Origin: an uncultured Gemmatimonadales bacterium
GTDB lineage: Bacteria > Gemmatimonadota > Gemmatimonadetes > Gemmatimonadales > GWC2-71-9
NCBI GenBank assembly: GCA_963728705.1
Contig: CAVSLY010000011.1
Span: 101,701-165,700 of the forward strand
Reading direction: 5' to 3'
Length of the DNA: 64,000 nucleotides
Position 1 is the first letter of the stretch. Each line of letters opens with the position of its first letter. Both the position numbers and the translations under genes were made by a program. The notes under the pieces are model-generated. The model saw only the letters and a list, made by a program, of their open reading frames with translations. It ran no database searches and had not been told where the DNA came from. This document shows positions 45,179 through 61,690 of the stretch, piece by piece.

Positions 45179-45227
45179 TTGACGTGCGCGCGTGCCTGCC
45201 CATATTACTGACCAGTCAGTTAGTAAT
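45179..45227 (+). promoter_or_regulatory. promoter with overlapping TetR-type operator
   Basis: TTGACG (45179-45184), 17 nt, then ATATTA (45202-45207). An AT-rich imperfect palindrome ATTACTGAC-CA-GTCAGTTAGTAAT (45204-45227, core ACTGAC/GTCAGT) overlaps the -10, 19 nt before the tetR ATG. Confidence 0.5.
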
Positions 45228-45245
45228 TGCACCACGAGGTGCTCT

Positions 45246-45905
45246 ATGGGCGCCGACGACTCGATGCTCACCGCCCCGCCCCGCTGGCAGCGCCGCCCCG
45301 AGGCACGCCCCGACGAGATTCTCGATGCCGCCCTGGCGGTCTTCGGCGAGTCCGGCTTCGCCCGCGCCAAGATCGACGACGTCGCCCGCCTCGCCGGCGT
45401 GAGCAAGGGCACCGTCTACCTCTATTACGACTCCAAGGAAGCGCTTTTCCGCGAGATGGTGCGCGCCAAGATCGTCGCCTGTCTGGCGGAAGGCGAGGCG
45501 CTCGTGCGCACGCACGAAGGGTCCGCGCGGGCGCTGCTCGTCGATCTCATCCGGCGCATGTACCTCCGCATGCGCGAGGAAGGGATGACGCGGATCGCCC
45601 GGGTCGTCCAGGCCGAGCTCATGTACTTCCCTGAGCTGGCCCGGTTCTACTTCGACGAGGTGATTCTGCGCGCCCGTCGCCTGATCGAGCAGGTGCTCGA
45701 GCGCGGCGTGGCCACCGGCGAGTTCCGGAGCAATCCGCACGGGTTCGCCGCCCGCGGGCTGACCTCGCTTCTGGTCCACACCGCCCACCAGCAGTGCTTC
45801 TACCACCCCTTCGACCCCCAGGCGCTCGGGGACGAGCAGGCGCTCGACGGGCTCCTGGACCTCTATCTCCACGGCGTGCTCGCGCGCTCCGTCGAAGAGA
45901 GCTGA
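45246..45905 (+). CDS. TetR/AcrR-family transcriptional regulator
   Basis: HTH ILDAALAVFGESGFARAKIDDVARLAGVSKGTVYLYYDSKEALF. First gene of the efflux operon. Confidence 0.85.
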   Translation: MGADDSMLTAPPRWQRRPEARPDEILDAALAVFGESGFARAKIDDVARLAGVSKGTVYLYYDSKEALFREMVRAKIVACLAEGEALVRTHEGSARALLVDLIRRMYLRMREEGMTRIARVVQAELMYFPELARFYFDEVILRARRLIEQVLERGVATGEFRSNPHGFAARGLTSLLVHTAHQQCFYHPFDPQALGDEQALDGLLDLYLHGVLARSVEES

Positions 45906-49974: not shown

Positions 49975-51447
49975 TTGCCTCATCTTTCCCTCGTGACCTT
50001 CCAACGCAAGCTGCTCTTCGGTTTTTCCCTGATGGTGCTCCCGGTGCTGCTCGTCGGTGCGGAAGCCATCCGCAGCAACGTGCTGGAGCGCCGTGCCCTT
50101 ACGGCGCTGGGTGAGAGCATGGCGCGCACGCGGACTTACGCCGAGCTCGAGACTGCCATGTTCGACCAGACCGAGCTCATCTGGCGCGACCTGAGCGGCC
50201 TCGATCCCACCGCGCGGAAGGAATTCCAGCTCACCGGAGAGGTCGTCGGCTACTGGCAGGACCGCTGGCGCGCCGAGCTCAAGCCGGAGGAGACGACGCT
50301 CGCCGACGGGGTCCAGGGCATTCAACGCCAGATCGTCGCCGTGTCCGAGAGCGTCTTCGCGCTGGAGGACGCCGGACGGCGCGAGGATGCGTACCGCCTC
50401 GCCGAGCGCGAGCTCAGAGGCCGGCTCCAGCCGGCGCTCACGCAGATGAACCGGGAGATCTACCGCCGCGCCCGGGAGTCGAGCGTGCGCGGCGCGTTCG
50501 GCCGGCTGGAAGAGATTCTGGCCGACGAGGGGCGGACGCTCGTCGCCATCATCGCGCTCGCGCTCGTGGCCGGACTGGTGGCGAGCTGGGTCATCTCGCA
50601 AAGCCTGGCGCGTCCGATCAAGCAGCTCACCGAGGCCATGGCCGTCGTTGGCGGAGGCGACCTCGACCACCCGGTCCAGGCCACCTCGCGCGACGAGGTC
50701 GGCGACCTGGCGCGCGCGCTCGGGGTCATGACCGGACAGCTCCGCGCCTCGCGTGAGCAGCTGGTGCAGGCGGAGAAGCTGGCCTCGATCGGCGAGATGT
50801 CGGCCGCGGTGGCCCACGGGCTTCGGAATCCGCTCGCGAGCCTCCGCGCGGCCGCGCAGCTCGTCCGGCGCCATCCCGCGTCACCCGGCGCCACCGAGCA
50901 CCTCGACGCCATCATCGAGGAGGTGGATCGCCTCGACCGTCGCATCAGCCACCTGCTCAGCTTCAGCCGTCCGGCGCCGTTCCATCCGGGCTCCGAGAGC
51001 CTGCCGCGGCTGATCGACGACCTGTTGCCTGCCGTCGCGACGCCGATTCGCGAGCAGCACGTCGAGCTCGAGATGGCGGTGCCCGTCACGCTGCCGGCGG
51101 TGCGGGTGGATCCCATGCAGCTCGAGCAGGCCATCCTGGAGATCGTGTCGAACGCCCTCGACGCCATGCCTGGAGGCGGACGTCTTCGGATCGGGGCCTA
51201 CGTCGCCAATGGCGAGGGGCCGGCCGCCGTCGTCCTCGAGGTGAGCGACACGGGCGGCGGCATCCCCGAACAGGCACTCTCGTCGGTCTGCGAGCCGTTC
51301 TTCACCACCCGGCAGGAGGGCACCGGGCTCGGCCTGGCGATCGCCAAGCGGTACATCGAGCAGAACGGCGGCCGCCTGGAGATCGCGAGCCGTGTGGGCG
51401 AGGGCACGACGGTTCGGGTCCGCCTCCCCACCGAGCGCACCGCGTGA
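49975..51447 (+). CDS. sensor histidine kinase (TM-HAMP-HisKA-HATPase)
   Basis: HAMP (RPIKQLTEAM..GDLD), H-box AAVAHGLRNPL, and G-boxes DTGGGIP and GTGLGLAIAK. Start is TTG 49975 or GTG 49993. Confidence 0.85.
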   Translation: MPHLSLVTFQRKLLFGFSLMVLPVLLVGAEAIRSNVLERRALTALGESMARTRTYAELETAMFDQTELIWRDLSGLDPTARKEFQLTGEVVGYWQDRWRAELKPEETTLADGVQGIQRQIVAVSESVFALEDAGRREDAYRLAERELRGRLQPALTQMNREIYRRARESSVRGAFGRLEEILADEGRTLVAIIALALVAGLVASWVISQSLARPIKQLTEAMAVVGGGDLDHPVQATSRDEVGDLARALGVMTGQLRASREQLVQAEKLASIGEMSAAVAHGLRNPLASLRAAAQLVRRHPASPGATEHLDAIIEEVDRLDRRISHLLSFSRPAPFHPGSESLPRLIDDLLPAVATPIREQHVELEMAVPVTLPAVRVDPMQLEQAILEIVSNALDAMPGGGRLRIGAYVANGEGPAAVVLEVSDTGGGIPEQALSSVCEPFFTTRQEGTGLGLAIAKRYIEQNGGRLEIASRVGEGTTVRVRLPTERTA

Positions 51448-51457
51448 GGCGCACGTC

Positions 51458-52897
51458 GTGAGCGGCTCGACCGTGCTCATCGTCGACGACGAGCGCACGC
51501 TCGCCCGGGCCATCAAGGCGTTCCTGACCGAGTCGGGCTACGAAGCCGAGGTGGCGGGCGACGCGGAGCAGGCGCTCCGGCTGCTCGAGACCATGCGCCC
51601 CGACGTCGTCTTCACCGACGTGCGGCTTCCCGGCATGGACGGCATCGAGCTGCTGCGGCGGATCCGCGAGTTCGACGCCGCCATCCCCGTGATCATCATG
51701 ACCGCGCACGGCACCATCGAGGGCGCGGTCGAGGCCGTGAAGCTGGGCGCGTTCGACTACCTCAAGAAGCCCATCGACCTCGAGGAGCTCAAGCTCCTGG
51801 CCGACCGCGCCCGGGAGCACTCCCAGCTCCGCCAGGAACTCTCCTACTACCGCCGGCGAGACGCGGCGCGCGAGACGCCGCTTGCCGGCGTCATCGGCGA
51901 GTCGCCGTCCATCCGGGAGGTGCTGGACCAGGCGCGCCAGATCGCGGCGCTCGATGAGACGCCGCCGGTCCTCATCATCGGCGAGACCGGCACCGGGAAG
52001 GGCCTCGTCGCGCGCACCATCCACAGCGCGAGTCCGCGCGCGGGCCGGCCCTTCATCGAGGTGAACTGCACGGCGCTCCCGGCCACGCTCATGGAAGCCG
52101 AGCTCTTCGGCCACGAGCGGGGGGCATTCACCGACGCGAAGGAATCGCGCATGGGCCTCTTCGAGGCCGCCGATGGTGGGTTCCTGTTCCTCGACGAGGT
52201 GGGCGATGTCGAGCTCTCGCTCCAGGGCAAGCTGCTCAAGGCGGTCGAGGACCGGACCGTGCGGCGCGTCGGTGGCATCCGCGACCGCCGGATCGACGTG
52301 CGGATCCTGGCCGCTACCAACCGGGATCTCGAACGCGACGCTCAGCGCGAGACCTTTCGCCGGGACCTGTACTTCAGGCTGGCGGTGATCATCCTGCAGC
52401 TACCGCCGCTCCGGGAGCGGGGCAGCGACATCCTGCTCCTGGCCCAGCACTACCTCGAGCGGTTCAATGCCAAGTACGGGAAGGACGTGCGACAGATCGA
52501 CGCGCGCGCCCGGACGCTGCTGGCCGAGTATCCGTGGCCAGGCAACGTGCGCGAGCTGAGCCACGTGATCGAGCGCGCGGTCCTGTGGAGCCGCGGACCG
52601 ATGCTGGACGTCGAGCACCTCTCGCTCGGCACGCCCGCAGGGGCGGGACCGGCGCCAGAACCCCGAGCGGCATCGCCAACGGGGTCGACCGCGTCGCCGG
52701 CTCCGGCTCCAACCGGCGCCGCGAGCGGAGGGTATCCGGTCTCTCCACCGCCCGGCCTGCCGCTCGACCAATGGGAGCGCACGCTCATCGAGCAGGCGCT
52801 TCGGGAGTGCGACGGCAACCAGACCCGTGCCGCCCAACGGCTGGGAATCAGCCGTGACACGCTGCGGTACCGGCTCAAGAAGCATGGGATTCAGTGA
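51458..52897 (+). CDS. sigma54-dependent response regulator (NtrC family)
   Basis: GTG 51458. Receiver (LIVDDE..DVRLPGMDG), AAA+ (GETGTGKGLVAR, ERGAFTDA, FLFLDEV) and a C-terminal Fis-type HTH (NQTRAAQRLGISRDTLRYRLKKHGI). Confidence 0.9.
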   Translation: MSGSTVLIVDDERTLARAIKAFLTESGYEAEVAGDAEQALRLLETMRPDVVFTDVRLPGMDGIELLRRIREFDAAIPVIIMTAHGTIEGAVEAVKLGAFDYLKKPIDLEELKLLADRAREHSQLRQELSYYRRRDAARETPLAGVIGESPSIREVLDQARQIAALDETPPVLIIGETGTGKGLVARTIHSASPRAGRPFIEVNCTALPATLMEAELFGHERGAFTDAKESRMGLFEAADGGFLFLDEVGDVELSLQGKLLKAVEDRTVRRVGGIRDRRIDVRILAATNRDLERDAQRETFRRDLYFRLAVIILQLPPLRERGSDILLLAQHYLERFNAKYGKDVRQIDARARTLLAEYPWPGNVRELSHVIERAVLWSRGPMLDVEHLSLGTPAGAGPAPEPRAASPTGSTASPAPAPTGAASGGYPVSPPPGLPLDQWERTLIEQALRECDGNQTRAAQRLGISRDTLRYRLKKHGIQ

Positions 52898-52923: not shown

Positions 52924-52989
52924 GTCATCCTGAGCGAAGCGAAAGAGCCATGCCTTAGGTCATGGCTCCTTCGCTTCGCTCAGGATGAC
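52924..52989. repeat. palindromic repeat element, copy B (near-perfect 29-bp arms)
   Basis: GTCATCCTGAGCGAAGCGAAAGAGCCATG-ccttaggt-CATGGCTCCTTCGCTTCGCTCAGGATGAC with one arm mismatch. Sits between the convergent NtrC and SGNH genes and probably also acts as a terminator hairpin. Confidence 0.8.
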
Positions 52990-53004: not shown

Positions 53005-53901
53005 TTAAGGAACGTCCGTCGGACCGTAGTCGCTGTACCGCTCGAGCGCCGCCTGCGCCGCCTCCTGAAGCCGCTGGGCCTTCGTGGGGTCGACCGTCGC
53101 CGGTGCGGGCAGGCCGAGCGGTGAGCGCCCGGAGAGCGCGGCGAAGATCGTGAGCGCCGCCGCGTAGCTGCCGGCCGGGGTGGGATGAAACCCGTCGCCG
53201 CCATACAGCGCGAGCGACGGGTCGGCGCGCCACGCCGCCCGCCAGGATTCTCCTGCCGGCAGGAACCAGCCGGACACGTCTCGCGCGGCGAGCGCGTACG
53301 AGTCCCGCACCCGATCGAACCAGGCGAATCGGGTGAGGTCGGGCCACACCATATACAAGGCGGACCGACCGCCCGCCGCGCGCACCAGCCCGTCGAACTG
53401 CACCACCCAGTGCCGCAGGTTGGTCCGGCTCTCGGGCAACGACGAGGGACCTTGTTGCAGGACCACGGCATCCCAGTGGCCGCTCTGTATCCGGGCCTGG
53501 GCGGAGCCGCCCTTCCAGTGGTCCTCCAGGCTGGCGCCGCCTTGCAGTTCTGCCTGTACGTCCCAGTCGAGCCCTTCGGCCGTGGCCATTGCCAGGACCT
53601 GCGCCGGCAGATCGTTCGCGTCAGTGAGGCTGTTGCCGATGAAGAGCACCCGGGCTCCCGAACCGAGGCCAGATGGATTAGGAATCGGCGGTCCCGGTTT
53701 CGGTGACGGGGGCGGGCCCGGGTCAGGTGGCGGTGGCGGCGGGGCGGGAGGCGGTGGTGGCGCGGGTGGAGCCGGGGGCTCCGGTGGCGGATTGTTTCCC
53801 GTGGGTGGGGTCGTAACGTCGGATGACGAGCCGGCGCAGGACGGCCCGACGGCAAGCGCAAGACACATCGCCAGCACCGCGGCCCGCCAATCATGGAGCA
53901 T
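53005..53901 (-). CDS. SGNH/GDSL-type hydrolase lipoprotein with a proline-rich linker
   Basis: Signal peptide and lipobox-like AVGPSC. Roughly 40-aa run that is mostly Pro. VLFIGNSLT (block I Ser) and GDGFHP (block V). Confidence 0.65.
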   Translation of the reverse strand: MLHDWRAAVLAMCLALAVGPSCAGSSSDVTTPPTGNNPPPEPPAPPAPPPPPAPPPPPPDPGPPPSPKPGPPIPNPSGLGSGARVLFIGNSLTDANDLPAQVLAMATAEGLDWDVQAELQGGASLEDHWKGGSAQARIQSGHWDAVVLQQGPSSLPESRTNLRHWVVQFDGLVRAAGGRSALYMVWPDLTRFAWFDRVRDSYALAARDVSGWFLPAGESWRAAWRADPSLALYGGDGFHPTPAGSYAAALTIFAALSGRSPLGLPAPATVDPTKAQRLQEAAQAALERYSDYGPTDVP

Positions 53902-54015
53902 GAATCGCGTCCTCAGTACCGGCGATGTCGTGGATGATGCCTGCGCGGTCCGTTCGGAGGTGACGCCGATAGTGGCTTTTCCGGCACGCGCCTGTCGCTC
54001 CGCTCACCCGCCAGT

Positions 54016-54034
54016 GGGTGGGATCACCCAATCG
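54016..54034 (+). promoter_or_regulatory. 19-nt motif copy 1 (GGGTG-N4-CACCC-AATCG), UAS-like position
   Basis: GGGTGGGATCACCCAATCG, about 115 bp upstream of the sigma54-type -24 element. 17/19 identical to the copy at 54193. Confidence 0.4.
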
Positions 54035-54138
54035 GGTGCTATGCCCCAACCCTTACGCATCCGAGGTCGTCCGGTGGGAATCGGCGCAAACCGGTCCCGC
54101 ATATATGCTTAGACAACAATCGATCACGCCGATCATTC

Positions 54139-54154
54139 TGGCACACCACCTGCG
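54139..54154 (+). promoter_or_regulatory. sigma54-type -24/-12 promoter upstream of pqqA
   Basis: TGGCAC-accac-CTGCG against the consensus TGGCAC-N5-TTGCW. Lies in an AT-richer intergenic region 94 nt before the pqqA ATG. Confidence 0.45.
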
Positions 54155-54192
54155 TTAAAGCGGGCGTCGTCGGGTCCTCCAACGATCCGACT

Positions 54193-54211
54193 GGGTGGTA
54201 ACACCCAATCG
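54193..54211 (+). promoter_or_regulatory. 19-nt motif copy 2, in the pqqA leader
   Basis: GGGTGGTAACACCCAATCG, between the putative promoter and the SD (GGAGGA at 54235-54240). Could fold as a 5-bp hairpin with a GUAA loop. Confidence 0.4.
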
Positions 54212-54247
54212 TCAGTCCGTTCCACAACCCTCTCGGAGGACGAAAAC

Positions 54248-54322
54248 ATGAAGTGGACCAAGCCCGAGGCCGAGATCGTCGCCGTCACGATGGAAGTCAC
54301 CGCGTACGTCGCGACCCTGTAA
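54248..54322 (+). CDS. pqqA: PQQ precursor peptide (small ORF absent from the ORF track)
   Basis: MKWTKPEAEIVAVTMEVTAYVATL (24 aa) with the conserved E-x3-Y (EVTAY) and an MKW..P N-terminus. Strong SD. Directly upstream of pqqB. Confidence 0.9.
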   Translation: MKWTKPEAEIVAVTMEVTAYVATL

Positions 54323-54336
54323 GGCGAAAGACTGAT

Positions 54337-54372
54337 CTGAGGGGCTCGCGAAAGCGGGCCCCTCAGTCTTTT
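54337..54372 (+). terminator. stem-loop/attenuator between pqqA and pqqB
   Basis: CTGAGGGGCTCGC-GAAA-GCGGGCCCCTCAG (13-bp stem including one G-U pair, GAAA tetraloop) followed by TCTTTTCC. Confidence 0.55.
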
Positions 54373-54399
54373 CCGCCCCCTCCGCCCCCGTCTTTCCCC

Positions 54400-55308
54400 A
54401 TGCATATCGTTCTCCTCGGTACCGCCGCCGGTGGGGGATTCCCCCAATGGAATTGCTGGTGCCTGTCCTGCCGGGTGGCTCGTGAGGACCCGCGGCGCGC
54501 GATCCCGCGGAGCCAGTCGTCCGTCGCCGTGAGCGGCGACGGCGCGCGATGGTTTCTCCTCAATGCATCGCCCGACGTCCATGCGCAGCTCGGCCGCCTC
54601 CACGTGCCGGTGCCCGCCGGAACTCGGCATGTCCCGGTCGAGGGCATCGTCTTGACCGATGCCGAGCTCGACCACACGCTTGGTATCGTGCTCCTGCGCG
54701 AGGCGCGGCGGCTGCAGGTGGCCGCCACCGACGCGGTCCGGCGGGTCATCGAGGACGATTCGCGGCTGCTCCCCGTCACCCGGGCGTTTGCCGACGTCAC
54801 CGTCACCGAGCTCGTGCCCGACCAGCCGCTCGAGCTCTGCTACCGCGACGGAACGCCGAGCGGGCTCCGGGTGACCTGCTTCCCGGTGCCCGCGGGCCCT
54901 CCGCGGTTCGCCCGCGAGGAGCGCCCGGCCCACACCGTGGGGCTCCTGGTGCAGGACGAGCGTACCGGCGGCACCTGCGCCTTCGTCCCCGGCTGCGGCG
55001 ACCTGGACCAGGCCCTGCTCTCACGCCTGGGCCGCGCGGACCTCGTACTGTTCGACGGGACGTTCTGGACCGACGACGAGCTGATCGGACTGGGCATCGG
55101 CGAGCGCACGGCGCGTCAGATGGATCATCTGCCGGTCTCCGGACCCGACGGCAGCCTGGCCCGGCTCGGTCGGCTGCCGAGTCGGCACCGGGTGTACACG
55201 CACATCAACAACACCAATCCCATGTTGCTCGAGGATGCGCCCGAGCGGGCCCTGGTCGAACAGGCCGGTCTCCGGATCGGCGTCGACGGCATGCGATTCA
55301 CCCTCTGA
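54400..55308 (+). CDS. pqqB: PQQ biosynthesis protein B (metallo-beta-lactamase fold)
   Basis: ATG 54400. MHIVLLGTAAGGGFPQWNCWCLSC is characteristic of the PqqB N-terminus. Confidence 0.9.
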   Translation: MHIVLLGTAAGGGFPQWNCWCLSCRVAREDPRRAIPRSQSSVAVSGDGARWFLLNASPDVHAQLGRLHVPVPAGTRHVPVEGIVLTDAELDHTLGIVLLREARRLQVAATDAVRRVIEDDSRLLPVTRAFADVTVTELVPDQPLELCYRDGTPSGLRVTCFPVPAGPPRFAREERPAHTVGLLVQDERTGGTCAFVPGCGDLDQALLSRLGRADLVLFDGTFWTDDELIGLGIGERTARQMDHLPVSGPDGSLARLGRLPSRHRVYTHINNTNPMLLEDAPERALVEQAGLRIGVDGMRFTL

Positions 55309-55317
55309 GGCCCGACC

Positions 55318-56076
55318 ATGACGACCACGCTCGCCGCCTCGCAGCTCGCCACGCCACCTCGGCCACCGATCCCGGTCCTCGAGCGTCCGCTCGCGCCGGC
55401 GGCGCTCGAGGAGGCCCTGCGCGCGTTCCATGGGTCGTACTACGTCCAGCACCCGTTTCACCAGCTCATGTACGAGGGCAAGCTCAGCCAGCGGCAGTTC
55501 CAGGGCTGGGTGACCAATCGCCTCGCCTATCAGCGCGTCGTGCCGCGGAAAGACGCTGCGATCCTGTCCAACTGCCCCGACGCCGACGTGCGGCGTGAGT
55601 GGATCGGCCGCATCATCGACCACGACGGCACCGAGCCGGGCACGGGCGGGATCGAGCTCTGGATCCGGCTCGGCATTGCGCTCGGTGTGCCGCGCGAGGA
55701 GATGGAGGACGAGCGGCACGTGCTGCCGGCGGTGCGGCTCATCTGCGAGTCGTACGTCACGTTCTGCCGGAGCAAGCCGTGGCAGGAGGCCTGCGCGTCG
55801 TCGCTCACCGAGCTGTTCGCGCCCAAGATCCATCAGCAGCGGATCGAGGCGTTCCCCCGGCACTATCCGTGGATTCCGCCCGAGGGACTCGACTACTTCA
55901 AGAGCCGGCTGGTGCAGGCCCCGCGCGACGTGAACCACGGGCTCCGCATCGTGCGGGCCTGGGCCACGACGCCCGAGCGGCAGCAGAAGGTGTTCGAGGC
56001 GTTGGCCTTCAAGCTGGAGATGCTGTGGGCCATGATCGACACCATCCACAATGCCTACCGCGAGGAGCCGGCGTGA
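55318..56076 (+). CDS. pqqC: pyrroloquinoline-quinone synthase
   Basis: 252 aa. YYVQHPFHQLMYEGKLSQRQFQGWVTNR. Position in the operon. Confidence 0.9.
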   Translation: MTTTLAASQLATPPRPPIPVLERPLAPAALEEALRAFHGSYYVQHPFHQLMYEGKLSQRQFQGWVTNRLAYQRVVPRKDAAILSNCPDADVRREWIGRIIDHDGTEPGTGGIELWIRLGIALGVPREEMEDERHVLPAVRLICESYVTFCRSKPWQEACASSLTELFAPKIHQQRIEAFPRHYPWIPPEGLDYFKSRLVQAPRDVNHGLRIVRAWATTPERQQKVFEALAFKLEMLWAMIDTIHNAYREEPA

Positions 56077-56336
56077 CGCTCTCGCCCGACTCGGTGCCGC
56101 GGATCTGGCGGCTGGCCCGGCTGGATTACGACCCGGCCCGGCAGCGGCCCGTGCTGTTGTACCCCGAGGGCGCCGTGCTCCTGAACGACACCGGCCGCGA
56201 GATCCTCGAGCTGGTCGACGGCACTCGCACCGTGGCCGAGATTGCGGGGCTCCTCGGTGCGCGCTACCAGACCGACGTCACCGCCGACGTGACCGACTAC
56301 CTGTCGCGCCTGGCGGAAAGGGAGCTGATCCAATGA
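56073..56336 (+). CDS. pqqD: PQQ biosynthesis peptide chaperone
   Basis: GTG 56073 overlaps the pqqC stop. VLLYPEGAVLLNDTGREILELVDGTRTVAEI. Confidence 0.85.
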   Translation: MTLSPDSVPRIWRLARLDYDPARQRPVLLYPEGAVLLNDTGREILELVDGTRTVAEIAGLLGARYQTDVTADVTDYLSRLAERELIQ

Positions 56337-57418
56337 CGACCGAACGTCCGACCACGCTGCTGGCAGAGCTGACGCACCGCTGTCCGCTCCACTGCCCCTA
56401 TTGCTCCAACCCGCTCGACCTGCTCCGAGCCGAGAGCGAGATCGGCACCGACGACTGGAAACGGGTGTTTACCCAGGCGCGGGAGCTGGGCGTGCTGCAG
56501 CTCGGCCTCTCGGGCGGTGAGCCGCTCATCCGGAAGGACCTGGAGGCGCTCGCCACGCACGCCCGGAGCCTGGGCCTCTACACTACGCTCGTGACCTCGG
56601 GCCTCGGCCTCACCCGCAAGCGTGCCGAGGCGCTCCGGACGGCCGGCCTCGAGCACATCCAGGTGTCGGTGCAGGACGCGGATGCCGAGACGGCGGAGCG
56701 GATCGCGGGCGTGAGCTCGGTCAAGCAGAAGCAGGCGGCCATCGCGCTGGTCAAGGAGCTGGGCTTCGCCTTCTCGATCAACGTGGTGCTCCACCGCGCC
56801 AACCTCGACCGCATCGGCGAGATCATCGACCTCGCCGCCGGCTGGGGCGCCGACCGGCTCGAGCTCGCCAACACGCAGTACTATGGCTGGGGGCTCAAGA
56901 ACCGGGCGACGCTCATGCCCAGCCGCGAGCAGGTGCTGACGGCCCGGGAGATCGCCCAGGACCGGATGCTGCGCTACAAGGGGCAGATGCAGATCACCTT
57001 CGTGCTCCCCGATTACTTCGAGGAGCTGCCCAAGGCGTGCTACGGCGGGTGGGGACGGTACTACATCGTGGTAGCGCCCGACGGCAAGGCGCTGCCCTGC
57101 CATGGCGCGTACGCGATCCCGTCGCTCGACCTGCCGAGCGTGCAGGACCACTCCATCCACTGGATCTGGCACGAGTCGTCCGCGTTCGAGGCCTTCCGCG
57201 GCGACGCGTGGATGAAGGAGCCGTGCCGGACCTGCCCGCGGAAAGCCGTGGACTTCGGCGGCTGCCGCTGCCAGGCACTCGCGCTGACGGGCGACGCGGC
57301 CAATGCCGACCCGGTCTGCACATTGAGCCCGCACCGTCACCTCATCGACGAGGCGCTGCACGAGCATGCCGGCGCCGACGCCTACGTCTATCGCGACTTT
57401 GCCGTCGAGCCGCGTTGA
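56333..57418 (+). CDS. pqqE: PQQ biosynthesis radical SAM protein
   Basis: ATG 56333 (ATGA overlap). CPLHCPYC radical-SAM cluster motif. C-terminal SPASM cysteines (CRTCPRKAVDFGGCRCQA). Confidence 0.9.
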   Translation: MTTERPTTLLAELTHRCPLHCPYCSNPLDLLRAESEIGTDDWKRVFTQARELGVLQLGLSGGEPLIRKDLEALATHARSLGLYTTLVTSGLGLTRKRAEALRTAGLEHIQVSVQDADAETAERIAGVSSVKQKQAAIALVKELGFAFSINVVLHRANLDRIGEIIDLAAGWGADRLELANTQYYGWGLKNRATLMPSREQVLTAREIAQDRMLRYKGQMQITFVLPDYFEELPKACYGGWGRYYIVVAPDGKALPCHGAYAIPSLDLPSVQDHSIHWIWHESSAFEAFRGDAWMKEPCRTCPRKAVDFGGCRCQALALTGDAANADPVCTLSPHRHLIDEALHEHAGADAYVYRDFAVEPR

Positions 57419-58338
57419 GCGCGTCGCCGGCGATCGTCACCGCGGGGCTCGGGCGCGACTATGACAGTGTCCGGGCCCTCGACGCGTTGAGCCTGGAGGT
57501 TCCGCTGGGCGCGCTGGTCGGCCTGCTGGGTCCCAATGGCGCGGGCAAGACGACTGCGATGCTGCTGCTCGCCACGCTGCTGGCCCCCTCCCGCGGCGAG
57601 GCCACGATCTTCGGCCACGACGTGGTCCGCGAGCGCGGCGCCGTCCGGCGCCGGCTGGGTCTCGTGTTCCAGGAGACCAGCATCGACGGTCTCCTCACGG
57701 TCGAGGAGAACCTCCGCTTTGCCGGCCGCCTCGCCGGCCTGGGCGGGGGCGAGCTCCGCGCCGCAGTCGCCGCGGCGATCGACCGTGCCGGACTCCGGGC
57801 GCTCGCGGCGCAGCCGGCGCGGCAGCTCTCCGGCGGCTGGCGGCGGCTGGTGGACATCGCCCGCGCCACGCTGCACCGGCCGGACCTCCTCGTCCTGGAC
57901 GAGCCCACGGTCGGCCTCGACCCCGAGCATCGCGAGCTGATCTGGACCATCCTCGGCGCGGAGCGGCGCGAGCGCGGCACGACGGTCCTCTTCTCCACGC
58001 ACTATCTCGCCGAGGCGGAGCCCGCCGACCGGGTGGTCCTGCTCTCACGCGGCCGCGCGGTGGCCGACGGAACGCCGGCCGCGCTCAGGGCGGCCGTCGG
58101 CGTCGAGGTCGCCGAGATCGAGGGGCCCGGGGCGGAACGCCTGGCGCGGGCGATCCGCGGGCTGGGTGCCACGGCCACCGTGCTCCAGACCGACCGCGGT
58201 TTCCGGGTGGGCATTGTCGGGGAGCGGGAGTCGGTCATGGAGCTGGCCACCAGCGCCCCTGGGATCGAGCGGCTCGCCCTTCGGCCGGCGACGCTCGAGG
58301 ATGCGTACTTCGCGCACACACGCGAGGGCGCGGCATGA
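57415..58338 (+). CDS. ABC transporter ATP-binding protein (ABC-2/DrrA-like)
   Basis: TTG 57415 overlaps the pqqE stop (TTGA); start tentative. Walker A GPNGAGKTT, signature LSGGWRRLVDIARA, Walker B LLVLDEPTVGLD. Confidence 0.8.
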   Translation: MSASPAIVTAGLGRDYDSVRALDALSLEVPLGALVGLLGPNGAGKTTAMLLLATLLAPSRGEATIFGHDVVRERGAVRRRLGLVFQETSIDGLLTVEENLRFAGRLAGLGGGELRAAVAAAIDRAGLRALAAQPARQLSGGWRRLVDIARATLHRPDLLVLDEPTVGLDPEHRELIWTILGAERRERGTTVLFSTHYLAEAEPADRVVLLSRGRAVADGTPAALRAAVGVEVAEIEGPGAERLARAIRGLGATATVLQTDRGFRVGIVGERESVMELATSAPGIERLALRPATLEDAYFAHTREGAA

Positions 58339-59124
58339 GCGCGTGGAGCGCGGTCGTCGGCATCGTCGCGCGCGACCTCGCCCGCACGACGCGACAGACC
58401 AGCCGGCTCCTGGGCGGGCTCGCGCGGCCATTCATGTGGCTGCTGCTGGTCGGGAGCGGCTACAACGCCATCGCCAGGCTCGAGGGCGGGCTGCCGTATC
58501 AGGCGTTCGTGTTTCCCGGAATCGTGGTGATGGCGGCGCTCTTCGGGGCGATGCTCACCGCCATCGGAACCGTGTACGACCGCGAGTTCGGCATGCTGCG
58601 CCTGATGCTCGCGAGTCCCGCCGGCGTGCCGGCGGTGCTGACGGGGCGGGCCATCGCGGCCGCGCTGGTCGGCGTGCTCCAGGGTGGGATCGTGCTGGCC
58701 TGCGCGCCGCTGGTGCTGCCGGTGTCGCCGGGCGAACGTCGGTGCCGGGGCCGGCGCGCTGGTGCTCGCGGCCGGCGTGAGCGCCCTGCTGGGCCTGCTG
58801 GTGGCCGCGCGGCTCCGATCGGTCGAGAACTTCGCGGGGGTCATCAACGTGGTGCTGTTTCCGCTGCTGTTCGTGAGCGGCGCGCTGTACCCCACGGCCG
58901 GGATGCCGCCGGTGTTGCGCCTGCTCGCGCGGGCCAATCCCGTCACCTACCAGGTCGACCTGATGCGGCACGCGTTCGGGCAGCCCACCGAGTTCGCTGC
59001 GGGGACGGATGTGCTGGTGCTCGCGGGCGCGGCCGTGGTGGCGTTCGGCCTGACGGCGCTGCTGTTCGATCCGGAGCAGCGGTTCGTGAGGACGAGACGG
59101 GGAGGCGAGCGATCGTCATCCTGA
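58335..59124 (+). pseudogene. ABC-2-type transporter permease, one apparent frameshift
   Basis: ATG 58335 overlaps the ATPase stop (ATGA). TM-rich N-terminal half in ORF 58335..59480 and C-terminal half in ORF 58684..59124 (SVENFAGVINVVLFPLLFVSGALYP). Switch near 58735. The stop codon lies inside repeat copy C. Confidence 0.7.
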
Positions 59125-59200
59125 GCGGAGCGAAGGATCGGGTCGGTGGTGCGAGTGAGCGCCGAGCCTCACTTACATGCGTTGGCCGATCCAGGATGAC
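59115..59200. repeat. palindromic repeat element, copy C (right arm carries a 12-nt deletion)
   Basis: GTCATCCTGAGCGGAGCGAAGGATCGG...GGCCGATCC^AGGATGAC. The first 27 nt are identical to copy D, the core is similar, and the orientation is the same as D. Confidence 0.75.
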
Positions 59201-59967
59201 CCACATGGTCCAGCACGACATCCTGCTCCAGCCGCGACCGCAACGGGGCGCGCAACGGTCCACCCGCCGGGACCGACGTCTCGACCACGATGTGCCGCGT
59301 CCGCCGCAGGAGCCCCGTCGCCGCATCCCAATCCACCTGCCCCTCCTCGATCGTCTCTTGCCGCGCCGCGATGGCCGTCGTATCGCCGCGCACGGTGGCG
59401 CGACCTGGCCTCGCTGCGGGAACGGAGCGCGAGCCGGCGCACCGCCCGTCCACCCGCGAGGCTGTCGGGCAGCCGGGTGAGCTCCAGCCCCCTGCCATCG
59501 CGCCATTGCTCCCCAACCGTGAGCGCCGAGGGAGGCAGCGGCGGGAGCAGATCGTCCAGGGCGGCGCCGAGGTCGGACACCTCCGCCACCTCATCGGGCA
59601 CGAACGGTCGGGCGTCGGCCGTGTAGCGGCCCGCAGACGAAAGCGTCCCGCGGTAGCGACCGCCGAGCAGGCCGTCCGTGTCGGGCGCGAGCACCCCCTC
59701 CGGGCTCGTCCGCGAGAGCGCGAGCGAGTCGTACCACGCCTCGACGGAGATTCCCGCCGGTGCGGACCGTCCGCGCACGCGCCAGAGGCCGTCGCGCGTC
59801 AGCGTCTCCCGCCGGCGCCGGAGGCCGGTCTCAGCCTCGAGCACCGCACGCGAGTGCTCATGGAGCGAGACGCAGCGAAATTGCTCGGGGGTATAACGGA
59901 ATTCGGCCGGCGCTTGCGCGGCGCCGGGACTCGTTCCCACGCAGAGGGCGCACGCGACTAGTGTCAT
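59169..59967 (-). pseudogene. hypothetical protein bracketed by repeat copies C and D, one apparent frameshift
   Basis: ORF 59173..59967 (N-terminal part; its ATG lies inside repeat D; partial signal-peptide-like LVACALCVGTSPGAAQA) continues in ORF 59169..59594. Switch near 59430-59470. No family recognised. Confidence 0.4.
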
Positions 59968-60060
59968 CCTGAGCGGAGCGAAGGATCGGGCCGGTGGTGC
60001 GTGTGAGGCTAGTGCGTCACTCGCATGCGTCAGCCGATCCTTCGCTCCGCTCAGGATGAC
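59963..60060. repeat. palindromic repeat element, copy D (full length, 98 bp)
   Basis: GTCATCCTGAGCGGAGCGAAGGATCGG-core-CAGCCGATCCTTCGCTCCGCTCAGGATGAC. It exactly fills the gap between the pruA stop (60061) and the hypothetical gene start. Confidence 0.8.

Positions 60061-61690
<1,630 letters not shown>

Follow-up and report, generated by a model that had tools for sequence, protein, structure and literature searches.

In the NtrB/NtrC-glnAp2 system of the enteric bacteria, a two-component kinase and an activator with REC, AAA+ and Fis-type HTH domains activate by looping from two dyad-symmetric sites that precede a -24/-12 promoter by 100-150 bp. The two sites of the glnAp2 enhancer are spaced by ~32 bp. 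The AtoS/AtoC and ZraS/ZraR pairs of E. coli similarly combine a membrane kinase with a sigma-54 activator and control an adjoining operon. Sites of sigma-54 activators can also be located downstream of the transcription start and work as enhancers, as do the ftr elements recognised by FlbD in Caulobacter. A passage in PMC6504787, citing Correa and Klose (2005), likewise describes the sites of Vibrio cholerae FlrC downstream of the transcription start as true enhancers. Finally, NorR, a one-component NO sensor, uses three copies of one short dyad motif at the single sigma-54 promoter of norVW, all of them upstream, and a passage in PMC2831303 states that all three are required for the active oligomer.

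The pqq operons of the Proteobacteria start with pqqA, which is followed by a hairpin and then by pqqBCDE, and their expression is regulated. Periplasmic dehydrogenases of the alcohol, sugar and lanthanide-dependent types use PQQ as their cofactor, and to our knowledge the control of its production is poorly understood beyond a few Proteobacteria. In P. aeruginosa AgmR is a positive regulator of pqq (PMC3480352), and a Burkholderia island holds a gene for a sigma-54-dependent regulator together with pqq genes, a regulatory link not being shown there (PMC9088363). A literature search returned no report of control of pqqA, the pqq operon or pqqABCDE by sigma-54, RpoN, NtrC or an enhancer-binding protein, in line with the initial annotation, whose author was not aware of such control as the norm for pqq operons.

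In the locus described here pqqA, and by read-through pqqBCDE, is very probably under the control of an enhancer-dependent sigma-54 promoter and an adjoining two-component system, with palindromes serving as the activator sites. The arrangement resembles that of NtrB/NtrC-glnAp2 in the type of kinase and activator and in the placement of two dyad sites, but the recognition sequence is TGGGTG-N4-CACCCA with sites 18-20 bp apart, the target is a cofactor precursor peptide rather than nitrogen assimilation, and the sensor kinase is anchored in the membrane and has a periplasmic domain. As at norVW there are three copies of the motif, whereas here the third lies downstream of the predicted start, in the leader, and is dispensable in some lineages. 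Unlike in the FlrC and FlbD systems, where the downstream sites are the main enhancer, the main enhancer would be upstream here and the downstream copy an add-on, which is predicted to form an RNA stem as well.

Organisation of the locus

The window, i.e. the whole stretch of 64 kb of DNA that was analysed, originates from a soil bacterium of the order Gemmatimonadales, and the same arrangement is found in dozens of relatives. Its relevant genes and gene-associated elements are:

49975-51447, plus strand: membrane sensor histidine kinase with two transmembrane segments, a periplasmic domain, HAMP, HisKA and HATPase_c (Pfam)
51392-52897, plus strand: NtrC-type sigma-54 enhancer-binding response regulator with REC, AAA+ and Fis-type HTH (Pfam)
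54235-54239, plus strand: Shine-Dalgarno sequence GGAGG, a conserved GGAG block before the ATG (alignment A1)
54248-54322, plus strand: pqqA, PQQ precursor peptide MKWTKPEAEIVAVTMEVTAYVATL with the E-X3-Y motif (TIGR02107, Pfam PqqA)
54337-54366, plus strand: GC-rich 13-bp hairpin with a GAAA loop, followed by TCTTTT, between pqqA and pqqB (terminator scan)
54400-55308, plus strand: pqqB (Pfam Lactamase_B_2)
55318-56076, plus strand: pqqC (Pfam TENA/PqqC)
56073-56336, plus strand: pqqD (Pfam PqqD)
56336-57418, plus strand: pqqE (Pfam Radical_SAM and SPASM)

The genes pqqA to pqqE constitute a complete PQQ biosynthesis operon (pqqABCDE). The PqqA peptide, which is conserved in the relatives, scores 25.5 bits against TIGR02107 (cut-off 20). 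The hairpin behind pqqA is a putative terminator- or attenuator-like element, and an equivalent hairpin was present 3' of pqqA in all relatives inspected. Upstream of the pqqA promoter the window carries a divergent lipoprotein gene, for which no minus-strand sigma-54 promoter was seen by eye.

The initial annotation had placed a histidine kinase and a sigma-54-dependent regulator of the NtrC family at 49975-52897, and the Pfam domain sets agree with this. The regulator matches Sigma54_activat (PF00158; E 5e-63), Response_reg and HTH_8 and is accompanied by an adjoining kinase gene, as is usual for NtrC-family response regulators. Its true start is probably near 51455, since the ortholog alignments begin at residues 20-26. 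All 59 sequences of the regulator ortholog set contain the GAFTDA loop, a variant of the GAFTGA loop of sigma-54 activators that is listed as activation-competent (PMC4641369), and the HTH sequence GNQTxAAxxLGxxRDTLRYRLKK is nearly invariant, paralleling the invariant DNA motif.

Among the NCBIfam models the best matches of the pair were AtoC (E 8e-135) and AtoS (E 4e-66), yet these amount to 450 versus 714 bits and 223 versus 646 bits, respectively, the likeness being confined to the generic catalytic domains. Similarly, the regulator matches the NtrC model with an E-value of 1e-122 but stays below the equivalog cut-off (410 versus 558.6 bits) and is therefore not NtrC. As it scores under every equivalog cut-off, the regulator, judged by these models, belongs to no named subfamily (NtrC, AtoC, ZraR, GlrR or others). 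The kinase core showed only sub-threshold similarity to AtoS/ZraS, and the sensor domain is unrelated to those of AtoS and ZraS: it is an all-helical periplasmic domain of ~150 amino acids, without a family match in Pfam and with a low-confidence AF2 single-sequence model (pLDDT 47).

The kinase gene overlaps or directly adjoins the regulator gene, and synteny of the two with pqqA extends over ~55 loci; the pair is found directly upstream of pqqA in ~55 species-level genomes, with a PqqB identity of 58-95%. When rpoN was sought by its RpoN-box motif, neither the window nor any of the fetched loci gave a match. RpoN is present in the one finished Gemmatimonadetes genome surveyed in PMC3372290 (Table 1).

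The predicted sigma-54 promoter of pqqA

Three elements were distinguished in the promoter region:

54087-54111, no strand: AT-richer spacer with a position-specific CAA ... N19 ... CTTA signal (base composition, position counts)
54139-54154, plus strand: predicted sigma-54 (-24/-12) promoter TGGCAC-ACCAC-CTGCG, TGGCACACCACCTGCG (sequence, conservation in relatives)
54162-54174, plus strand: conserved block GGGCGTCGTCGGG across the predicted transcription start (position counts, alignment A1)

A sigma-54 promoter is characterised by GG and GC exactly one helical turn apart in TGGCAC-N5-TTGCW. The box TGGCACACCACCTGCG has GG at 54140-41 and GC at 54152-53, which is the correct 10-nt spacing, and ends 94 nt before the pqqA ATG (54248); its position, sequence and distance had all been given correctly in the initial annotation. 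Within the window alone the match is at background level, with three matches at no more than one mismatch versus 3.2 expected. The chance-level match turned into a strong case once related genomes were compared. The comparison covered 80 related loci (1.68 Mb on both strands; 906 kb including the window), in which the pattern GGCAY-N6-TGC occurs 86 times, and 48 of these occurrences lie in the 120-nt zone before pqqA. Owing to the shared ancestry of the loci, such counts exceed the number of independent events. Judged across the relatives the predicted box is far beyond chance.

In activator-linked relatives the box is located 55-125 nt upstream of pqqA. The 49 promoter-bearing sequences that were aligned share the consensus YGGCACG-N4-CTGC, and not one of the 49 departs from its GG and TGC; the -12 element of the family is CTGC, versus the canonical TTGC. 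No sigma-70-like promoter was found in a scan of 53700-54500. Sigma-54 transcripts are expected to start ~12 nt downstream of the GC, and from this geometry we infer that transcription of pqqA starts at about 54165.

The spacer upstream of the box reaches an AT content of ~0.5 at -60 to -25 from the -24 box and shows base preferences at fixed positions, namely A at -52/-51 (in 28 and 38 of the 49 sequences) and T at -31/-30 (31 and 29 of 49). It is a candidate site for a DNA-bending protein. For IHF there is no clean match to WATCAA-N4-TTR, just the position-specific AA...TT, and an IHF site stays a weak candidate.

Tandem palindromes upstream of the promoter

54015-54030, no strand: predicted enhancer site A, perfect palindrome TGGGTG-GGAT-CACCCA (palindrome scoring, conservation)
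54033-54048, no strand: predicted enhancer site B, degenerate palindrome CGGGTGCTATGCCCCA, 18 bp downstream of A (conservation)

Two copies of a 19-nt element had been reported in the initial annotation, GGGTGGGATCACCCAATCG (54016-54034) and GGGTGGTAACACCCAATCG (54193-54211). The coordinates and the identity of 17/19 are correct, but the conserved unit proved to be a 16-bp palindrome (54015-54030 and 54192-54207), and the ATCG tail that the two copies share is not kept in the relatives. The palindrome pattern TGGGTG-N4-CACCCA, scored out of 12, has these two positions as its sole matches in the window, each on both strands, versus 0.55 expected. The strict palindrome occurs nowhere else in the 906 kb of the window and the 80 loci; it is not dispersed, and the generic repeat that would have spoken against the original proposal was not encountered there.

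Site A scores 10-12 out of 12 in 47 of the 49 promoter-bearing sequences and has a constrained centre, with GA.ATC preferred in the relatives. Its centre lies at about -143 from the predicted start in the window. Counted from the T of TGGCAC it is found either at -121 to -129 (23 sequences) or at -133 to -138 (24 sequences), and never between. Two position classes that are 10-11 bp apart are typical of an enhancer, and keep the helical phase with the promoter. The centre of site B is ~124 bp upstream of the predicted start, and in most loci a second site follows A by 17-20 bp, its right half (TCACCCA or TGCCCCA) being strongly conserved. NtrC-type enhancers consist of dyad sites, usually paired, ~100-150 bp upstream and in helical phase with the promoter, and this is what sites A and B display. 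The enhancer position proposed earlier, upstream of the -24 box, is backed by the phasing, whereas the single copy turned out to be a tandem pair of which B had been missed.

In most relatives sites A and B are situated at the 3' end of the activator gene, and in ~20 loci they overlap its stop codon. Where a gene is inserted between the regulator and pqqA, the two sites remain at the promoter; the inserted gene is a lipoprotein gene in the window and in locus L001, and a multicopper oxidase gene in L005. Such behaviour is not that of 3' hairpins or terminators belonging to the activator mRNA, a role that was accordingly rejected for the upstream copies. There is neither an enhancer site nor a sigma-54 box in front of the multicopper oxidase gene of L005, which is thus an unrelated insertion. 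In a subgroup with the operon order kinase-regulator-pqqB-C-D-pqqA-pqqE, the box and palindrome-like sites are relocated together with pqqA. The single-sequence folding statistic of the upstream site region was uninformative (z = -0.87).

Co-occurrence with the regulator

The box was observed in 53 of the 54 loci that have the regulator pair, and in 53 of 53 that are readable; in the one exception, L036, the promoter region is masked by Ns. By contrast, none of the 15 loci that lack the pair has the box, and such loci have sigma-70-like boxes instead, e.g. TTGCCC-N17-TATACT in L078. Likewise, the palindromes were found only at loci with the activator gene. The assignment of the motif to the regulator rests on this co-occurrence and on adjacency.

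A blind scan, in which metagenomes were searched for the palindrome and box motifs without any protein information, is in line with the assignment. Of its 80 matches 33 are pqqA promoters, with the regulator gene upstream in all cases where the contig allows, and two further matches have the kinase and regulator genes on a contig that ends before the downstream gene. Another match, L111, encodes a paralogous regulator (46% identical) and has the same tandem sites and box before a SCO1/SenC gene; this promoter has sites A and B only. The central proposal of the initial annotation, that PQQ synthesis is enhancer-dependent and signal-controlled in this organism, is thus strongly supported by the comparison of species, through the co-occurrence, the phasing, the sites that follow the promoter and the blind search.

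The leader and the third palindrome

54169-54191, plus strand: leader hairpin P1, GUCGGGUC / GAUCCGAC, 8 bp with a 7-nt loop, at the predicted 5' end of the transcript (covariation, fold prediction)
54192-54207, no strand: site C / leader hairpin P2, TGGGTG-GTAA-CACCCA, at about +28 to +43 and abutting P1

Across the relatives 96.5% of the P1 cells are paired, and six of the eight pairs have changes on both sides. There are ~66 G.U cells versus 12 non-pairs, and the observed values were reached by none of 500 shuffles. The G.U excess points to a helix in the plus-strand RNA, and P1 is part of the predicted minimum-free-energy fold. P1 thus displays the covariation that is expected of a structured leader RNA; P2 is invariant and in this respect uninformative. 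The covariation supports a hairpin, not a ligand-binding fold. The single-sequence folding statistic of the leader is uninformative (z = -1.44). Rfam gave no match on the leader even at E <= 10, and its sole match around the leader, BjrC68, is sub-threshold (19.9 bits, gathering score 39) and covers the pqqA 3' end and the terminator hairpin.

Site C keeps a constant distance from the T of the -24 element (+51 to +54) and scores 12/12 in ~30 loci. Its stem is invariant and identical to that of site A, and its loop varies freely. The initial annotation had suggested that this copy, in the transcribed leader, could fold as a GUAA-loop hairpin, but the GUAA loop is not conserved. A GNRA (GUAA) tetraloop could be ruled out, since no more than 5 of 39 relatives have GTAA or GCAA in the loop and the sequence there is arbitrary in the others.

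Since P2 repeats the sequence of site A, it is most likely a third site of the regulator as well, a promoter-downstream site C that would act as auxiliary enhancer or brake; this is the least certain step of our interpretation. A tentative but serious alternative is that the leader palindrome acts as RNA, P1 and P2 forming a two-hairpin 5' module that serves message stability or translation or an RNA-binding factor, and that the regulator uses A and B only. This alternative concerns the third copy alone and is compatible with the rest of the interpretation. P2 abuts the covarying P1 without a spacer, both are in the predicted minimum-free-energy structure, and six short-leader loci lack the two together while retaining the promoter as well as A and B, so that activation does not require site C. 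A constant-length P1 at the 5' end explains the fixed distance of C to the promoter equally well, and the unconstrained centre of C is loop-like, whereas that of A is constrained. Moreover, four loci that have lost the C consensus (L013, L021, L043 and L079) keep a stem of 4-5 bp, including one double change from T-A to C-G, and the paralogous SCO1 promoter of L111 lacks the third site. On the other hand, selection for structure alone does not explain why the stem of C is invariant and equals site A while the neighbouring P1 stem varies. The centre of C is ~53 bp, or about five helical turns, from the promoter centre and on the same face as A and B, and the leader matches no Rfam family.

Both functions might be combined in one element, although we consider this unlikely. 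In the DNA, site C would then offer the activator a third place to bind, about five turns of the helix past the promoter; in the RNA, it would fold into the second hairpin of a stacked 5' pair that determines how long the pqqA message lives. On the DNA side, dimers on both sides of the sigma-54 holoenzyme may join into one activator ring, or an unphosphorylated dimer at +35 may act as a brake. If this were true, one sequence would tie the initiation of transcription to the later fate of the RNA. We know of no description of such a DNA/RNA arrangement for sigma-54 promoters.

Other readings of the palindromes and the box

The palindromes could in principle be operators of another factor encoded elsewhere, e.g. 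a repressor, with the sigma-54 activator acting from solution or from other sites. Palindromes of 16 bp are typical operators of many dimeric regulators, and a TetR-family gene is located 9 kb upstream (45192-45905). Yet there is no copy of the palindrome near this gene or the efflux operon, and the TetR regulator was ruled out as the binding protein. The restriction of the palindromes to loci with the activator gene, their overlap with its stop codon, their presence with the paralogous activator before an unrelated target in L111, and their classic enhancer distances and helical phasing also argue against another factor, which makes this reading very improbable.

That the -24/-12 match is fortuitous, with a sigma-70-type promoter or read-through accounting for pqqA transcription and the repeats being generic intergenic ones or terminators of the upstream gene, is close to refuted by the comparative data: the chance-level box in the window, a genuine dispersed repeat there (TCATCCTGAGCGRAGCGAA, six copies) and the usual location of A and B at the 3' end of the activator gene would fit it, but the box is conserved and co-occurs perfectly with the activator, the gap has no sigma-70-like site, the palindrome is not dispersed and follows the promoter instead of the activator 3' end (window, L001 and L005), and the divergent orientation of the upstream gene in the window makes read-through into pqqA impossible.

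Proposed circuit

With the enhancer-dependent circuit as the preferred interpretation, the pqqA promoter (54139-54154) would be silent until the regulator encoded upstream is activated. The membrane histidine kinase would sense a signal outside the cytoplasm and phosphorylate the regulator, the dimers of which would occupy the two palindromes A and B, which face the same side of the helix as the promoter. We infer this nature of the signal, the binding of the regulator and the dependence on sigma-54 from the sequence elements, their conservation and phasing and their co-occurrence with the regulator gene, all of which were directly observed. The bound dimers would form an AAA+ ring and contact the sigma-54 holoenzyme by looping of the DNA over the AT-richer spacer, and ATP hydrolysis would drive formation of the open complex. 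The resulting short pqqA mRNA, with P1 and P2 at its 5' end and a strong hairpin at its 3' end, may be stabilised and thereby be abundant and long-lived compared with that of pqqB-E.

Conclusion

The pqqA switch is a solid new example of the textbook enhancer-dependent mechanism and not a new mechanism. PQQ synthesis in these organisms appears to be switched on by a signal. For the Gemmatimonadales, a large and mostly uncultured soil lineage, this provides a concrete proposed circuit that comprises a dedicated kinase, a sigma-54 activator with a predicted 16-bp palindrome as its site, and a promoter aimed at the gene of the precursor peptide. The promoter tracks pqqA even when the gene is relocated within the operon, which suggests that it is the supply of precursor that is regulated. 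With the motif and promoter model, genomes of this lineage can be annotated directly, the rest of the regulon sought and reporters of the kinase signal designed.

Conservation of the sigma-54 box upstream of pqqA

The elements described in the initial annotation (the box, both 19-mers, pqqA, and the kinase and regulator genes) were all recovered in the window, at the positions below.

Features of the pqqA locus (window positions).
49975-51447: membrane histidine kinase gene (HAMP/HisKA/HATPase)
51392-52897: regulator gene, NtrC-type sigma-54 activator (REC, sigma-54 AAA+, Fis-HTH)
53005-53901, minus strand: divergent gene of a secreted, proline-rich protein (lipoprotein), separating the regulator gene from the repeat; weak DUF4886 match
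54015-54030: site A, strong (10-12 of 12 positions in 47/49 sequences); centre prefers GA.ATC
54033-54048: site B, degenerate, 17-20 bp downstream of A
54016-54034 and 54193-54211: the two 19-mers
54139-54154: sigma-54 box TGGCACACCACCTGCG, GG and GC at -24/-12 spacing
54169-54176 pairing with 54184-54191, plus strand: leader hairpin P1, with covariation in the leader alignment of relatives (A1)
54192-54207: leader hairpin P2, the second 19-mer copy, at about +28 to +43 of the predicted transcript
Starting 94 nt past the box end: pqqA, 24 codons, peptide MKWTKPEAEIVAVTMEVTAYVATL, which passes curated PqqA models
After pqqA: pqqB, C, D and E

In the window alone the box match is not significant (three matches at one mismatch, 3.2 expected). 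A PqqB-based scan, with each species represented by one genome, gave 80 loci, of which nearly all come from Gemmatimonadales MAGs and some from Acidobacteriota, with PqqB identities of 53 to 95%; pqqA could be located in most. In 49 sequences (the window and 48 loci) the pqqA ATG is preceded, at a distance of 55-125 nt, by the pattern NGGCAY-N6-TGC; in this set GG and TGC are invariant and the consensus is YGGCACG-N4-CTGC. GGCAY-N6-TGC occurs 86 times on both strands of all loci (1.68 Mb), 48 times within the 120-nt zone before pqqA. Apart from the shared elements, the surrounding intergenic DNA of these related loci is unalignable.

In about 55 loci pqqA is directly preceded by the kinase and regulator genes. 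Of the 54 loci with the regulator 53 contain the box, and of the 15 that lack kinase and regulator none does; these counts do not represent independent events, as the loci are related. In the sole exception, L036, the box stretch is masked by Ns, while the -12 end and the leader are visible. The loci without the two genes show sigma-70-like hexamers, e.g. TTGCCC-N17-TATACT in L078. The sigma-54 promoter initially proposed for pqqA is strongly supported, at the level of comparative sequence analysis, by the invariant box and its co-occurrence with the regulator.

Tandem palindromes upstream of the promoter

The repeat of the initial annotation does exist in two copies, but the conserved unit is the palindrome TGGGTG-N4-CACCCA, and the upstream copy is in fact the pair of sites A and B. 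In 64 kb the palindrome matches only at the two 19-mer copies, against 0.55 expected, which is significant. As the strict form is absent elsewhere in 906 kb (window and loci), it is not a dispersed repeat, and the earlier concern about a generic genome-wide element does not hold over this range. Relative to the T of TGGCAC, site A lies at -121 to -129 in 23 sequences and at -133 to -138 in 24, and never between. The two classes are one helical turn apart, so that the sites stay on the same helix face as the promoter; measured from the predicted start, the A and B centres lie about 143 and 124 bp upstream, or 153 and 135 bp. In about 20 loci (e.g. L014 5640-5660, L032, L033 and L038) the TGA stop codon of the regulator lies inside site A (...GGG TGA...), so that the regulator gene terminates inside a site that its product is predicted to bind. 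The HTH of the regulator, GNQTxAAxxLGxxRDTLRYRLKK, is almost invariant, in agreement with the invariant site.

A different repeat, TCATCCTGAGCGRAGCGAA, is dispersed and unrelated to the enhancer palindrome, with six copies in the window against 0.01 expected (52925-52988, 29521, 59116, 59964 and 60041; also L003 4921-5013). It is a REP-like element. The inverted pair 52925/52970, situated where the regulator and lipoprotein genes converge, forms a long hairpin that looks like a bidirectional terminator. Elsewhere in the window, the ORFs 58335-59480 and 60017-61690 encode plausible protein only in part and then become low-complexity and Arg/Gly/Pro-rich. One, an ABC-2 permease, is matched by Pfam only as far as residue 129/381; the other is aldehyde-dehydrogenase-like and on the minus strand. 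Each gene is continued by a second ORF in another frame (58684-59124; 60061-60750), and both may contain frameshifts, due to assembly errors or marking pseudogenes.

The motif follows the regulator family

The pattern TGGGTG-N4-CACCCA-N(100-126)-GGCAY-N6-TGC was used to scan a metagenome collection without protein information, and 80 loci were returned. In 33 of these pqqA follows within 260 nt, and all 33 carry the regulator gene upstream (57-96% identity) where the contig allows. In L109 and L120 the kinase, the regulator and sites A and B are present and the contig ends before the downstream gene. L111 (574-2742) contains a paralogous kinase-regulator pair, the regulator being 46% identical to that of the window. 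The same tandem sites overlap the 3' end of this pair, and a CGGCAC-N6-TGC box precedes not pqqA but a SCO1/SenC gene, the product of which is secreted and copper chaperone-like. The other 44 loci are mostly on lower-GC contigs, inside long ORFs and without site B, as expected of chance matches. The motif therefore tracks the regulator family rather than pqqA as such, and among the available arguments this is the strongest for the palindrome being bound by the regulator.

The scan also uncovered a further PqqA class (...ELGMEVGAYAGNA; pattern M[TSK]WTKPEF.VVELGMEVGAYAG[NT]A), in L083, L097, L107, L115, L123, L131, L132, L136, L139, L146, L148, L151, L156 and L160. Their PqqC is only about 50% identical to that of the window; the regulator (67-70% identity) is nevertheless the same, as are sites A and B and the sigma-54 box, and the short leader of 50-61 nt lacks P1 and P2.

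Natural rearrangements

In three cases a gene is inserted between the regulator gene and pqqA, and in each sites A and B stay at the promoter. The inserts are lineage-specific: in the window and L001 it is the lipoprotein gene, in L005 (4584-5609) a multicopper oxidase-like gene. A Gemmatimonadaceae subgroup (L049, L056, L059, L062, L063 and L070) has the order kinase-regulator-pqqB-C-D-pqqA-pqqE, and pqqB starts 7-10 nt after the stop codon of the regulator. The box CGGCAYGGTCNGTGCT and palindrome-like sites precede the relocated pqqA, at about +1700 to +2420 from pqqB. Since this promoter sits between pqqD and pqqA, it would serve only pqqA and pqqE there.

Leader RNA and the third palindrome copy

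Counting from the -12 C at 54153, transcription is predicted to begin at about 54165, within the conserved block GGGCGTCGTCGGG. Alignment A1 reveals two adjacent hairpins in the leader. In P1, 96.5% of cells are paired, six of the eight pairs are changed on both sides, and there are about 66 G.U cells as against 12 non-pairs; none of 500 shuffles reached the observed values. The G.U excess makes sense only for a plus-strand transcript, and by its covariation P1 is read as a real RNA helix. The stem of P2 is invariant and identical to site A, at a fixed offset of +51 to +54 from the -24 T. Because its 4-nt centre is unconstrained among the relatives, the GUAA loop suggested earlier is not conserved.

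P2 may act as a leader stem in the RNA or as a third regulator site in the DNA; the two roles are not mutually exclusive. A role in the RNA is suggested by the direct abutment of P2 on P1 and by their joint gain or loss, as both are missing from six short-leader loci in which the promoter and sites A and B are retained. Moreover, four loci without the consensus retain a short stem, and the SCO1 paralog has no such copy. The identity of P2 with site A, right beside a freely covarying P1, and its distance from the promoter centre, about five helical turns, point to a role in the DNA. For the latter, FlrC (downstream enhancer sites; PMC6504787) and NorR (a three-site enhancer; PMC2831303) offer precedents. 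In many relatives the stretch from P2 to the Shine-Dalgarno sequence (A1 columns about 68-90) contains a third hairpin, GGGCC-N4-6-GGCCC, which is absent from the window and L001.

A strong GC-rich hairpin was found 3' of pqqA in every locus inspected. In other pqq operons a hairpin after pqqA accompanies an abundant short pqqA transcript and partial read-through into pqqB-E, and by analogy the same probably applies here. The pqqA 3' end and this hairpin are spanned by a weak match (54298-54373; 19.9 bits against a gathering score of 39, E 0.005 on 291 nt) to the Rfam family BjrC68, a Bradyrhizobiaceae 'sRNA', which might itself be a pqqA transcript end.

Proposed mechanism

Most likely, a periplasmic signal would activate the kinase, which would phosphorylate the regulator; this would bind sites A and B, the DNA would loop over the AT-richer spacer (AT content about 0.5, with a position-specific AA...TT signal), and sigma-54 holoenzyme would form the open complex, yielding a burst of stabilised pqqA mRNA. 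The sequence comparison shows the elements with their conservation, phasing and co-occurrence, and regulator binding, sigma-54 dependence, the start and the signal are inferred. The GAFTDA loop, a variant reported to be activation-competent (PMC4641369), is present in all 59 regulator orthologs, and RpoN is present in the single finished genome of the Gemmatimonadetes that was surveyed (PMC3372290). For the kinase sensor domain no family match was found, and a single-sequence model was unusable.

None of the curated equivalog cut-offs is reached by the regulator, whose best matches are AtoC and NtrC, and it thus belongs to no named subfamily. Control of pqq genes by a sigma-54 promoter or an enhancer-binding protein was not found described in the literature searched; the nearest case is a Burkholderia island with a sigma-54-dependent regulator gene and pqq genes, for which a regulatory link was not shown (PMC9088363). 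The system in the window would work like NtrBC at glnAp2, and its reading as a further case of a known kind of sigma-54 system is well supported. Its unusual feature is that the enhancer palindrome has a copy downstream of the promoter, which appears to double as an RNA stem.
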